Assembly (NCBI GenBank): GCA_000008885.1
Contig: BA000021.3
Span: forward strand, 540,001 to 572,000
Direction: 5' to 3'
DNA from: Wigglesworthia glossinidia endosymbiont of Glossina brevipalpis
Lineage (GTDB): Bacteria > Pseudomonadota > Gammaproteobacteria > Enterobacterales > Enterobacteriaceae
Length of the DNA: 32,000 nt
The notes beneath the pieces were generated by a model. It was not told the DNA's origin. It ran no database searches and worked only from the letters and a program-made list of their open reading frames with translations. Made by a program: the position numbers and the translations under genes. Numbering within the stretch: the stretch's first letter is position 1; each line of letters begins with the position of its first letter. Of this stretch, positions 2,374 to 29,482 are shown one piece after another.

Positions 2374-4179
2374 TTAATCGTCTAAAAAGCTACGCAAAAT
2401 TTCAGAACGACTTGGATGACGTAATTTTCTTAAAGCTTTTGCTTCAATTTGTCTAATTCTTTCTCTTGTTACATCAAATTGTTTTCCTACTTCTTCTAAA
2501 GTATGATCAGTGCTCATATCAATTCCAAATCTCATTTTCAATACTTTTGCTTCTCTTGCTGTTAAACCAGACAATACATCATGAGTAGCGGATCGCAAAC
2601 TTTCTGATGTAGCAGAATCAAGAGGTAAATCTAAAGATGTATCTTCTAAAAAATCTCCTAAATGTGAATCTTCGTCATCTCCTATTGGAGTTTCCATAGA
2701 TATTGGTTCTTTTGCTATTTTAAGAACTTTTCTTATTTTATCTTCTGGTATTAACATTTTTTCTGACAGTTCTTCTGGAGTAGGTTCTCTTCCTATTTCT
2801 TGTAGCATTTGCCTAGATATTCTATTTAATTTATTTATTGTTTCAATCATATGAACTGGTATTCTGATAGTTCTAGCTTGATCTGCAATAGATCTGGTAA
2901 TTGCTTGTCTAATCCACCATGTTGCATATGTAGAAAATTTATAACCCCTTCTGTATTCGAATTTATCTACAGCTTTCATTAGACCTATATTTCCTTCTTG
3001 TATTAAATCTAAAAACTGCAATCCTCTATTGGTGTATTTTTTAGCTATAGATATTACTAATCTTAAATTTGCTTCAACCATTTCTTTTTTAGCTCTTTTA
3101 GCTTTTGCCTCTCCAATAGACATTCTTTTATTTATATCTTTTGCTTGTTCTATAGTTATTCCTGAATTAATTTCTATTATTTTTAATTTATTTAATATCA
3201 GACATATAGGTTTATTCAATTTATAAAGTTTTCTAGACCAAGGTTTATCTAAAGATAAAGCTTTTTTCAACCAAACATCATTTGTTTCATTTCCAGAAAA
3301 CAAAGAAATAAAAAATTTTTTAGGCATTTTGCATATATTAACGCATATTCTCATGATTCTTCTTTCATAAAACCTAATTTTTTCTATTTCTGACCTTATT
3401 ATAAATACTAAATAATCAAATTGTTTTGGAACTAATCTAAATTGTTTAAATATATCTGCAAGATAAATTATTTCTTTAATAGAAAATTCATGCATTCTTC
3501 CATATTCTTTTATAGTATTAAACGATATTTTATATTGTTCTTGTAATTCAATAAATCTTTTATTAGCCAATTCTTTATCTATATCAATTTCTTCTGAAGT
3601 GTTGTTTTCCTCTTCGCTAGAAATATCTTCCGTATTTAAATCAATATTGGAAGAGTCAACTACTATGTTCGGATCAACAAAACCAGTAATTAATTCTGAT
3701 AATTTTGATTCACCTGTAGTGGTTTTTTTGTATTGATCTAAAAGATAAATAATTGCTTTTGGATATTCTACAATCGCACATTGAATTTGATTTATTCCAT
3801 ATTCTATGCGTTTAGCAAGATCTATTTCGCCTTCTCTTGTCAATAGCTGTACACTTCCCATTTCTCTCATGTACATTCTAACCGGATCTGTAGTTTTTCC
3901 AAATTCTGATTCTACATTTGATAAAACCTGAGCGGCTGCTTCAGCTACATCTTCGTCTGAATTATTATTAGAATCTGGAAGCAATAAGTTTTCTGAATTT
4001 GGAGCTTCATCCATAACTTGTATTCCCATATCATTTATCATTTGAATGATATCTTCTATTTGATGGGAATCAATAATATTTTCTGGTAAAAAATCATTTA
4101 CTTCGGAAAAAGTCAAGTAGCCCTGTTCTTTACCACGAGTTACTAGTAGTTTAAGTTGTGACTGTTGATTTTTTTCCAT
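2374..4179 (-). CDS. rpoD: RNA polymerase sigma-70 factor RpoD
   Basis: 601 aa. N-terminus [18 protein letters not shown]. Regions 2-4 are highly conserved ([75 protein letters not shown] ... [34 protein letters not shown]). It has the rpsU-dnaG-rpoD operon order. Confidence 0.98.
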
Positions 4180-25683: not shown

Positions 25684-26973
25684 TTACTTAATTAATTTTA
25701 ATCCATCCATATAAGGTTGTAATATTTTGGGAACTTTAATATTACCTTCTTTAGTTTGATAATTTTCTATTATAGAAGCTAGAGTTCTGCTTATAGCTAA
25801 AGCAGATCCATTTAATATATGAGTTAAATGTATTTCTTTATTTGAAATTTTTCTATAACGAATTTTAGTTCTTCTAGATTGAAAATCACTTGTATTAGAA
25901 CAAGAAGATACTTCTATGTATTTATTTCTAGAAGGCATCCAAACTTCTAAATCATATGTTTTACAAGAAGAAAATCCAGTATCACCAGAACATAATAATA
26001 TTTTTCTATATGGTAAATCTAACAGCTGAAGTACACGTTCTGCATGATGAGTGATTTCTTCTAAAGCTTTTATAGAATTTTCTGGAGATACTATTTGTAC
26101 AATTTCTACTTTATCAAACTGATGCATACGTATCAAACCTTTAGTATCTTTTCCATAGGATCCTGCTTCTGATCTAAAACAAGGAGTATGAGAAGTCATT
26201 TTTATAGGCAAATAATTTTCATCAATAATTTCATTTCTCATTAAATTTGTTAGAGGAACTTCTGCTGTAGGTATTAGTGCATAACAACTTTGTATGTCCT
26301 CAAAAAATGATTTTGCATAAAAAAAATCATTATAAAATTTAGGTAGCTGACCAGTACCATATAGCATGTTTTTATTTACCAAATATGGTACATAATATTC
26401 TTCATATCCATGTTGATTTGTATGTAAATTTAGCATAAATTGGGACAAAGCTCGATGCATGTATGATATTTTATTTTTCATAACCACAAACCTACTACCA
26501 GATATTTTTGCGGATCTTGAAAAATCTAGATATTTAATTTTTTCTCCTATTTCTACGTGGCTTTTTATTTTAAAATTGTATATTTTTGGAGATCCCCATT
26601 TTTTCACTTCAATATTATTTTTTTGATCTTTTCCTATTGGAACTTTTTCGTCTAGAATATTTGGAATTGTAGATAAATAATTGTCAATTTCTTTTTTTAT
26701 TTTTTTTAATTTTTGTTTTTTTTCATTTAATAAAATATTAATTTTATTAGATTTATTTTTATAAATATCAATATTTTTATTATTAATTTTTATTTTACTT
26801 ATTATTTTAGATTGTAAATTGCGTTTATTTTGTAATTTTTCTACTTCTATTTGTAATATTTTTCTTTTTTGATCTTGAAGCAATATTTTTTTTTTATCTA
26901 AATAAAAATTTCTCAAAATCAATTTTTTACAAACTTCTTCTATATTTTTTATTATTAGTTTATGATCTATCAT
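25684..26973 (-). CDS. serS: Seryl-tRNA synthetase
   Basis: 429 aa. It has an N-terminal coiled-coil arm. Class II motifs include IPTAEVPLTN, CFRSEAGSYGKDTKGLIRMHQFDKVE and NGSALAISRTLASIIENYQ. Confidence 0.97.
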   Translation of the reverse strand: MIDHKLIIKNIEEVCKKLILRNFYLDKKKILLQDQKRKILQIEVEKLQNKRNLQSKIISKIKINNKNIDIYKNKSNKINILLNEKKQKLKKIKKEIDNYLSTIPNILDEKVPIGKDQKNNIEVKKWGSPKIYNFKIKSHVEIGEKIKYLDFSRSAKISGSRFVVMKNKISYMHRALSQFMLNLHTNQHGYEEYYVPYLVNKNMLYGTGQLPKFYNDFFYAKSFFEDIQSCYALIPTAEVPLTNLMRNEIIDENYLPIKMTSHTPCFRSEAGSYGKDTKGLIRMHQFDKVEIVQIVSPENSIKALEEITHHAERVLQLLDLPYRKILLCSGDTGFSSCKTYDLEVWMPSRNKYIEVSSCSNTSDFQSRRTKIRYRKISNKEIHLTHILNGSALAISRTLASIIENYQTKEGNIKVPKILQPYMDGLKLIK

Positions 26974-27054
26974 TTTTTTAAAAAAATTAAAATATTTTTG
27001 TAATTTTAATATATTTAAATATAATTTAAAGTTTAAAAAACTATTTTTTTAGTT

Positions 27055-27675
27055 CTATCTTTGGTCATCTATATATGCTCCTTTAGGTATTTTAAAGTTA
27101 AAATTAAAATCTGAAGATATAATAGTTTTTTTTATATTGAAAGTATAATAGGTTTTATAATTTGTATTACTTAATATAATTAAGTTTTTCAAAATTCCTT
27201 TTTTATCAATTATAATTGTAATTTTTCTAAAACTAGAATTTAGTTTTTTTGAATAAATATAAAATGTATCATTTATATTTTTTATATTGAAATTTTCCCA
27301 ACTATTTTTATTGTTTTTAATTATTAAATATAATGGAGAATCAGATATAATATTTTTAATCCAATTTATGGTAACTTGATTAGTTTCAGAATCATACAAC
27401 CATAAAGTATTTCCATCAGATGATGCAATATTTTCATATGGAGAAAATAAAATTGATTTAAATAAATTTGGTTTTTTTATCCAAATTTCTCCTTTGCTTT
27501 CTTGAACAATATCACCAGAAGAACTTGTTACTTTTTGTCTGACAGTAGAATAAAAACTATTAATTAAATTTAATCTTTCAGACAAAATACCAGAACTATC
27601 CGAAATGCTTGAAAAAGCATATAAGTACAGGCTAAACAAAATAAATTTAGGTAATTTTTTTATTAAATAAAACAT
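27055..27675 (-). CDS. lolA: Outer-membrane lipoprotein carrier protein LolA
   Basis: 206 aa. It has a signal peptide and is collinear with E. coli LolA (F.Q.V....G..VQE..G.LW.KRPNLF ... SDG.TLW.Y ... F.F..P.G..VDDQR). It has the ftsK-lolA-serS order. Confidence 0.9.
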   Translation of the reverse strand: MFYLIKKLPKFILFSLYLYAFSSISDSSGILSERLNLINSFYSTVRQKVTSSSGDIVQESKGEIWIKKPNLFKSILFSPYENIASSDGNTLWLYDSETNQVTINWIKNIISDSPLYLIIKNNKNSWENFNIKNINDTFYIYSKKLNSSFRKITIIIDKKGILKNLIILSNTNYKTYYTFNIKKTIISSDFNFNFKIPKGAYIDDQR

Positions 27676-27752
27676 TATATTTGAATTTTAATTAAATTTT
27701 AAAAAAATTATTTATATTATAAATAATAACATACATTATATATTTTTTATAA

Positions 27753-28247
27753 TTAAAAAAATGTTAACAAAAAAGATATTAATATACAAATAAAAACTAA
27801 AAAATAAAAAATATATAATTTATTATTTATTAATTGATACATAACATTATTTAATATATTTCCAATAATACCACCAAAATATATTCCACTGTAATTATCA
27901 TCAAACAAGAAAGATAAAAAACAACAACAAAATAAAATTAATAAAAACATATGAATTATTTTATATGATAATTTTATTAAGTTAATTTTTTTTTTTGTAT
28001 AAAAACAACAATCTAAAAAAAAAGATAAAAAAAATAAAGGAATAAAATAAGTCATTTTCCCAATCATAATAAACAATGTTCCTGATATATATGCTCCGTA
28101 CTTACCTCCAAAATTAAATATATAGTCGTTAGATGATGTTTTTAATAAATTTGGATCATCTTCATTAAAAGATATAATAGAAATTAATAAATACAAAGTT
28201 ATTATGAAAACAAGAAATACTTTTTTTTTATTATATTCATTTAACAT
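27753..28247 (-). CDS. ftsK: FtsK N-terminal membrane (division-septum targeting) domain only. The linker and C-terminal DNA-translocase motor are absent.
   Basis: 164 aa aligning with E. coli FtsK residues of about 20-185. Paired blocks are ISFNEDDPNLL / LSFNPSDPSW, NFGGKYGAYISGTLFIMIGKMTYFIP / [26 protein letters not shown], and FGGIIGNIL / SGGVIGSLL. It sits at the syntenic position (trxB-[lrp]-ftsK-lolA). Only 77 bp separate its stop from the lolA start. Confidence 0.75.
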   Translation of the reverse strand: MLNEYNKKKVFLVFIITLYLLISIISFNEDDPNLLKTSSNDYIFNFGGKYGAYISGTLFIMIGKMTYFIPLFFLSFFLDCCFYTKKKINLIKLSYKIIHMFLLILFCCCFLSFLFDDNYSGIYFGGIIGNILNNVMYQLINNKLYIFYFLVFICILISFLLTFF

Positions 28248-28537
28248 GATATGAATTCTTTAATAAAAGAAATAAATAATAAGTTTTATATAAAATATAA
28301 ATTTATAAAATTTTTTATTTATTTTAATAAATAAAATAATAAAAAAATGTATAATAAATCAAATTTTTATAAAAAAATTTATTTTACAATTTTTAAGTTT
28401 AATATTTAAAATATTCTATAAATATTAATTTTTGTTAACATATAATAATTATATTTCAATTTTATGATAATATAAGTTCTGTTTTAATAAATATTAAATA
28501 ATCGAGATATATATAAATTAAATATTTTGAAAAATAA

Positions 28538-29482
28538 ATGAAAATTAAATCTAAATTACTAATTTTAGGATCTGGACCAGCAGGTTTTACATCTGCAATA
28601 TATTCTTCTAGAGCTGGAATTAATCCAATTTTAATTACAGGTTCTCAATTAGGAGGTCAGTTAACAACAACTGACAAAATTGAAAATTGGCCTGGAGATT
28701 CAAAATCTTTGACAGGATCTGAATTAATTAAAAGAATGCGTGACCATGCAATAAAATTTGGAACAAAAATTTTTTACGATCATATAAATGAAGTAAATTT
28801 TAACAAAAAACCTTTTATTTGCAAAGGAGAAAAAGAATACATATCGGATGCAATCATTATTGCCACTGGATCTTCAGCTAGATATTTGGGTTTATCTTCT
28901 GAACAATTGTATAAAGGAAAAGGTGTATCAACTTGCGCTGTATGTGACGGTTTTTTTTATAAAAATAAAATTGTTGCTGTAATAGGAGGAGGTAACACAG
29001 CTTTAGAAGAAGCATTATACTTATCTAATATAGCATCTAAGGTGTATTTAATACATCGCAGAGATATTTTTACAGCAGAAAAAATATTAGTAGATAGAAT
29101 TTTTAAAAAAAGAAATAATGGAAATATTTCTATATATAATAATTTTGTAGTAAAAAAAATAATTGGAAATGATAAACAGGTAAGTTCTATTTTATTGGAA
29201 TCAACTACAAGCAAAAAAGAAAAAATTATATCAGTCTCTGGAATATTTATAGCAATAGGTCACATTCCAAATACAAAAATATTTGAAAATCAAATTACGC
29301 TTAAAAATTATTATATATGCATATCTAATAAATATAACAAAAAATATCGTACTTCCACATCAATACCAGGAATATTTTCTGCTGGAGACGTTTCAGATTA
29401 TTTATATCGTCAAGCAATTACAGCTTCTGGATTTGGATGCATGGCTGCTTTAGACGCAGAAAAATATCTTTCTTCATTATAA
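28538..29482 (+). CDS. trxB: Thioredoxin reductase
   Basis: 314 aa. Motifs: FAD GxGxxG LILGSGPAG, redox-active CAVCDG, NADPH site VIGGGNTALEEALYL, HRR, and GIFSAGDV. Confidence 0.96.
   Translation: MKIKSKLLILGSGPAGFTSAIYSSRAGINPILITGSQLGGQLTTTDKIENWPGDSKSLTGSELIKRMRDHAIKFGTKIFYDHINEVNFNKKPFICKGEKEYISDAIIIATGSSARYLGLSSEQLYKGKGVSTCAVCDGFFYKNKIVAVIGGGNTALEEALYLSNIASKVYLIHRRDIFTAEKILVDRIFKKRNNGNISIYNNFVVKKIIGNDKQVSSILLESTTSKKEKIISVSGIFIAIGHIPNTKIFENQITLKNYYICISNKYNKKYRTSTSIPGIFSAGDVSDYLYRQAITASGFGCMAALDAEKYLSSL

Follow-up and report, generated by a model that had tools for sequence, protein, structure and literature searches.

The window analyzed here is a 32,000-nt stretch of the genome of Wigglesworthia glossinidia, the endosymbiont of Glossina brevipalpis (contig BA000021.3, positions 540,001 to 572,000), with a G+C content of ~20%. 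In its second half lie trxB (28538..29482, plus strand; 314 aa; TIGR01292, E=2e-111) and, on the minus strand, a short open reading frame (27753..28247), lolA (27055..27675; 206 aa; TIGR00547, E=4.5e-40) and serS (25684..26973). The short frame, hereafter ftsK', has no other long ORF beside it in the trxB-lolA interval; it starts with ATG, runs uninterrupted for 164 aa and ends at a TAA stop (27753-27755). The gene order trxB-[lrp lost]-ftsK'-lolA-[rarA lost]-serS places it at the orthologous position of ftsK in the trxB-lrp-ftsK-lolA-rarA-serS order of Escherichia coli K-12, with trxB as the upstream syntenic anchor and lolA as the same downstream neighbour. The 290-bp spacer between the divergent ftsK' and trxB (28248..28537) occupies the former position of lrp, and the 81-bp spacer between lolA and serS (26974..27054) marks the lost rarA. 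Searched by tblastn with the E. coli proteins, the whole genome yielded no homologue of Lrp, and RarA gave only two weak partial matches of AAA+ type (28% over 197 residues and 32% over 71) and no convincing orthologue. The spacer from the ftsK' stop to the lolA ATG (27676..27752) is exactly 77 bp long, and the linker and motor regions, about 1150 codons in E. coli, are wholly deleted. No terminator-like hairpin was found in this spacer, and promoter-like matches around the ORF were no more frequent than in shuffled sequences.

The identity of the ftsK' product was assigned by profile and pairwise comparison. The Pfam profile FtsK_4TM (PF13491; cut-off 23.1 bits) matched it with E=5.2e-23 and 82 bits, residues 11-163 covering HMM positions 10-161 of 171, while the match to the NCBIfam FtsK equivalog was limited to model positions 28-160 of 1355. 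BLASTP aligned residues 10-142 with residues 27-160 of E. coli K-12 FtsK at 30% identity (E=2e-18). A chance ORF or a chance Pfam match was rejected on the E-values, the synteny and the conservation in three species described below. Hydropathy analysis found four hydrophobic segments in register with TM1-4 of E. coli FtsK, and together with the alignment they define TM1 (residues 7-29; 28161..28229), the TM2 region (residues 57-84; 27996..28079), TM3 (residues 90-118; 27894..27980) and TM4 (residues 139-164; 27756..27833), all on the minus strand. The periplasmic loop before TM2 carries the family-invariant N45, G48 and G51 in an N-F-G-G-x-x-G motif, and the one after TM3 carries D116-D117, which correspond to E. 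coli D135-D136, followed by the invariant G125, G126 and G129 of a GGxxG motif. The last residue of TM4 is the C-terminus of the protein, which thus has no cytoplasmic tail. An AlphaFold2 model built from the single sequence was helical but too uncertain for use (pLDDT 54, pTM 0.27), and a word-index protein search with the 164-aa query returned the query alone, the index being too coarse for AT-biased sequence.

The product therefore resembles the N-terminal domain of E. coli FtsK, FtsK(N) (residues ~1-200 of 1329), in its Pfam domain, its four-TM layout, its position by trxB/(lrp) and lolA, its two glycine motifs (NxGG and GGxxG) and the acidic pair of the periplasmic loop between TM3 and TM4. 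It differs from full-length E. coli FtsK in standing alone, without the linker, the alpha/beta/gamma motor or the juxtamembrane cytoplasmic segment, and from E. coli FtsK(N) in its low identity and in the loop motif 'NDYIF', where E. coli has the HExxH-like 'HEPIH'. These results bear out three claims of an earlier note made from the letters of the window: that an FtsK N-terminal domain lies at the ancestral ftsK position, that its frame stops right after the last TM segment, and that the linker and motor were cleanly removed, leaving 77 bp before lolA.

The whole genome of 703,004 bp, in two contigs (C1, 697,724 bp; C2, 5,280 bp) that were both covered in the motor searches, was then considered for the missing parts of FtsK and its partners. 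The best genome-wide match to the FtsK_SpoIIIE motor profile (PF01580) had E=0.046 and fell in a 458-aa frame with no relation to ftsK. When the six-frame translated genome was searched with full-length E. coli FtsK, residues 27-161 alone were matched, and nothing past residue 161 was found, the C-terminal gamma (KOPS/XerD-interacting winged-helix) domain included. A motor hidden elsewhere or on a plasmid, which would have spoken against the reading in the earlier note, was ruled out by the coverage of both contigs, and no second, full-length ftsK was found. Of the features that make up FtsK, the 4TM domain and the orthologous position are thus present in this genome, and the alpha/beta ATPase motor (Walker A/B) and the gamma domain are missing. 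For XerC/XerD-type tyrosine recombinases (PF00589, Phage_integrase), no match at E<=1 was obtained in the genome, while all 14 control genomes scored. No dif-like 28-mer was found in the genome either, the only matches having 7-8 mismatches, 7 in the best one, and being fewer than in shuffled sequence. The XerCD/dif system for chromosome-dimer resolution is absent from this genome, in agreement with Carnoy & Roten 2009 (PMC2731167), who list Wigglesworthia among the symbionts without dif/Xer.

The homologous recombination genes are largely retained. RecA, for which the earlier note proposed a search, was found with E=2e-137 (C1:278610-279395), and tblastn with the E. coli proteins located RecC, RecB and RecD (C1:308131-316009; RecB with 34% identity over 1171 aa) and RuvC (C1:124416-124883). 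Since RecA, RecBCD and RuvC are kept, recombination able to make dimers is retained, and dimer resolution is gone without being obviously irrelevant. Of the earlier prediction that xerC, xerD and dif would be absent or irrelevant, the absence is therefore confirmed and the irrelevance is not evident. How such genomes, with RecA, RecBCD and RuvC and without dimer resolution, deal with dimers is a question already raised by Carnoy & Roten (2009). As a separate observation, RuvA and RuvB gave no match at E<=1e-3 to the E. coli queries by tblastn over the whole genome, so that the RuvC resolvase is retained without its branch-migration partners.

We next compared the locus in two sister Wigglesworthia species, G001 and G002, the latter copy lying on a 719,535-bp contig. 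Both carry the same truncated frame between trxB and lolA with the same end-point after TM4 ('..CF[FI]KK' and stop), and no FtsK motor was found in either genome. Since the truncation and its end-point are common to the three species, the deletion is older than their divergence. Each sister copy has a single 1-nt homopolymer frameshift, and the rest of its frame is conserved. In G001 (locus L037, 2806-2822), the shift lies in an A11 tract directly after ATG-TTA and separates the ATG from the frame; this tract is homologous to the in-frame A9 tract near the start of ftsK' in the window (Lys7-9; 28221..28229, minus strand). In G002 (locus L038, 3285-3305), the shift lies mid-gene in a T10A9 tract in the TM2-TM3 loop, homologous to the in-frame A11 tract of the window's copy (Thr-Lys-Lys-Lys, TM2-TM3 cytoplasmic loop; 27986..27996, minus strand). 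Downstream of this shift ~90 codons remain open, in which the first ATG, GTG or TTG leaves just a 37-aa ORF. The window's own reading frame is unbroken through both tracts. The two shifts are independent and lineage-specific. Recent inactivation, errors of assembly or a lesion that polymerase slippage rescues could each explain them; unless slippage rescue or sequencing errors account for them, the genus does not have a strictly intact gene throughout. In Buchnera and Blochmannia, genes with homopolymer frameshifts are reportedly rescued by transcriptional slippage (Tamas et al. 2008; Wernegreen et al. 2010). The sister copies resemble those genes in that their one defect is an A11 or T10A9 tract whose length has changed by 1 nt; the likeness concerns the sister species only, where slippage is putative, whereas the ftsK' of the window is in frame. 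For Wigglesworthia, slippage was discussed by Rio et al. 2012 (PMC3280448).

The three species were also used to estimate selection on ftsK'. Pairwise dN/dS was 0.32 (G001-G002), 0.40 and 0.54, at an amino-acid identity of 40-62%, versus 0.10-0.30 and 62-90% for the neighbours trxB, lolA and serS; dS was ~0.5-1.05 over the four genes and ~0.7-1.0 for ftsK'. With a dN/dS 1.5-3x that of its neighbours, ftsK' is clearly under relaxed constraint relative to them. Neutral evolution was simulated in 2000 replicates that started from the real sequences, used the base composition of the spacers and were run to the observed divergence. On average 9.5-14 in-frame stops accumulated in the simulated ftsK', versus none observed, and not one of the 2000 replicates was stop-free. 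The simulated dN/dS had a median of 1.2-1.35 and a minimum of 0.51-0.67, and the three observed values lay below every simulation. The ORF is 61-76% identical at the nucleotide level with codon-sized gaps only, versus 51-69% and heavy gapping in the flanking spacers. These comparisons indicate that the stub has been under purifying selection and is not a neutral remnant.

An alignment of 11 FtsK(N) sequences from Wigglesworthia, Profftia, Hamiltonella, Serratia symbiotica, two further symbionts and E. coli contained ten invariant columns, including N45, G48, G51, G63, C108, G125, G126 and G129. The acidic pair aligned with E. coli D135-D136, which Berezuk et al. (PMC6113214) place in a functional periplasmic loop, reads NN or ND in the sister species. 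All the divisome proteins searched for around FtsK(N), namely FtsL, FtsB, FtsQ, FtsW and FtsA, and FtsZ and FtsI in an intact dcw cluster, are present in the genome. The sole SPOR-domain protein of the genome (C1:649280-650104, plus strand; 274 aa) is similar to DamX over the C-terminal part of the latter (NF008153, E=2.6e-21, short of the cut-off), and no SPOR protein of FtsN or RlpA type was detected in the three Wigglesworthia genomes. The requirement for FtsK(N) in E. coli can be bypassed genetically. Deletion of rlpA is one partial bypass (PMC6113214).

A broader comparison placed the stub among those of other symbionts. Among small Enterobacterales symbiont genomes with a 4TM match, the motor was absent in 25 of 42; uninterrupted motor-less 4TM frames of 166-379 aa occurred in 15 genera, and broken remnants in four more genomes. 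Two intermediate states were seen. In G031 a 278-aa stub is separated from lolA by 1.1 kb of non-coding DNA, and in G010 a 243-aa stub lies within a gene-poor stretch. Together with the same stub in the two sister species, this survey answers the locus comparison proposed in the earlier note, and it shows that erosion of ftsK in Enterobacterales symbionts commonly converges on the 4TM-only state as its end-point. In a profile-free HMMER search, 1.84 billion representatives gave 335 matches, many of them short and some bound to be contig-end fragments; complete 4TM-only proteins that could be named from their clusters included those of Ca. Profftia tarda (190 aa), Ca. Profftia lariciata (197 aa), Ca. 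Hamiltonella defensa (201 aa, in a cluster of 19 members) and Serratia symbiotica with a 650-kb genome (205 aa). Like the stubs of S. symbiotica SCc and STs, Profftia and Hamiltonella, that of Wigglesworthia consists of the N-terminal 4TM domain only, with no motor in the genome; unlike them, it lacks anything after TM4, where those proteins of 190-290 aa carry 20-100 further residues including the TGxSWLxIxEK segment. Of the surveyed frames spanning almost the full 4TM domain, those of Wigglesworthia (164-168 aa) and G411 (168 aa) were the shortest, and in both this conserved post-TM4 segment, kept by the other natural stubs, is absent. G411 is a genome of ~0.2 Mb and 79% completeness from the same family, whose motor-less open FtsK_4TM frame (C1:11008-11442, minus strand) scored E=7e-21. 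Of 401 genomes sampled from that GTDB family, about 100, mostly tiny ones, lacked FtsK_4TM altogether, which indicates that FtsK(N) is dispensable in some reduced symbionts.

The reading that best accounts for these data, to which we give a probability of about 0.7, is that ftsK' encodes a selectively maintained, motor-less FtsK(N) component of the divisome. Under it, ftsK' is the ftsK orthologue of this symbiont, which an old, clean deletion had already cut down to the N-terminal four-helix membrane domain when the lineages of the sampled Wigglesworthia species split; the functions in DNA translocation, KOPS reading and XerCD activation have gone along with xerC, xerD and dif; and the stub, presumably still translated, would be kept as a protein by selection. 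By analogy with E. coli, the product would be a septal inner-membrane protein that serves the divisome as a scaffold or checkpoint subunit, and may link the early FtsZ/FtsA ring to FtsQLB-FtsWI through contacts like those of its E. coli counterpart. The suggestion of the earlier note that the gene is a natural minimal FtsK gains support from the purifying selection over three Wigglesworthia species and from the retention of FtsQLB, FtsW, FtsI, FtsA and FtsZ. It also fits the E. coli work: the division function of FtsK is carried by the N-terminal part alone, as cited in PMC5013485 and PMC6113214, and residues 1-200 suffice for division according to the work cited in the former. Weighing against this reading are the homopolymer frameshifts of both sister copies, the relaxed constraint on ftsK', the NN or ND that replaces the acidic pair in the sister species, the missing post-TM4 segment, the lack of FtsK_4TM in some reduced symbionts and the genetic bypass of FtsK(N) in E. 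coli.

A published alternative is that the gene is a non-functional pseudogene remnant, in which case the open frame in this genome would survive because decay has not reached it yet. Rio et al. 2012 (PMC3280448) found ftsK truncated by at least 50% in the Wigglesworthia of G. morsitans and 'similarly truncated' in that of G. brevipalpis, and classed it as a pseudogene in both genomes. The frameshifts in two of the three species, the raised rate of ftsK' relative to its neighbours and the lack of FtsK in many tiny symbiont genomes are in keeping with such decay. However, a truncation common to three species at dS ~0.7-1.0 is old, and over that divergence none of the 2000 neutral simulations kept the frame open or reached the observed dN/dS, even in G002 the frame past the shift stays open although it has no early canonical start of its own, the family-invariant residues are retained, and uninterrupted 4TM-only frames recur in 15 genera. 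If a pseudogene is taken to be a gene with a disrupted frame or one that evolves neutrally, neither applies here, the frame being intact in this genome and its evolution non-neutral. We consider decay unlikely as an explanation, and Wigglesworthia ftsK has probably been mislabelled in print as a 'pseudogene'. We think it less likely still that the ORF is kept for a reason outside the divisome, such as translation for polarity-free read-through into lolA or a new role as a generic membrane protein. ftsK' may be transcribed together with lolA, since the 77-bp gap holds no terminator-like structure and promoter-like matches are at the level of shuffles, and the strong divergence from canonical FtsK(N), with 'NDYIF' in place of the E. 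coli 'HEPIH', would suit a new role. Selection for translation alone, though, would not lower dN/dS or keep NxGG, GGxxG, C108 and the four-TM architecture, and the divisome partners of FtsK(N) are all retained.

Parts of this picture have been published. The truncation itself was reported as a pseudogene (PMC3280448) and the absence of dif/Xer by PMC2731167, and the idea of a functional stub was put forward for Serratia symbiotica, and not for the Wigglesworthia gene, by Manzano-Marín & Latorre 2016 (PMC5013485), who took the truncated FtsK of strains SCc and STs as sufficient for division from experiments with E. coli FtsK(1-200). New here are the quantitative evidence for purifying selection on the Wigglesworthia stub and the survey of the 4TM-only state in Enterobacterales symbionts. 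If the stub is functional as a motor-less FtsK(N), it would be a natural experiment agreeing with E. coli genetics that the membrane domain is the part of FtsK needed for cell division, and it would show that a small genome confined to a host can do without the DNA pump and its partners XerCD/dif. Tentatively, and with less than even odds in our judgement, the 164-aa protein could be read as a natural lower bound for a working FtsK, with four TM helices and zero cytoplasmic residues past TM4, in a RecA+ RecBCD+ RuvC+ cell that lacks XerCD, dif and the motor of FtsK. What is essential for division in FtsK(N) would then lie wholly in its membrane and periplasmic parts, division would not need the contacts that the juxtamembrane and linker regions make with FtsQ, FtsI and FtsZ, and such a cell would have to tolerate chromosome dimers or resolve them by another route, e.g. 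polyploidy. The Wigglesworthia version, being among the shortest found, could guide the design of minimal constructs for structural and interaction studies of FtsK(N), and the 'pseudogene' label may be wrong for similar stubs elsewhere too.

The opposite miniaturization was seen at the trxB-ftsK-lolA locus of a 599-kb relative (G009; L042, C1:309000-315500, ORF 2570-3907 on the plus strand). Its FtsK, of 445 aa, begins with a short hydrophobic anchor that leads straight into the alpha/beta motor (PF01580, E=3.7e-58); FtsK_4TM does not match it, the linker is missing, and so, it appears, is the gamma domain.
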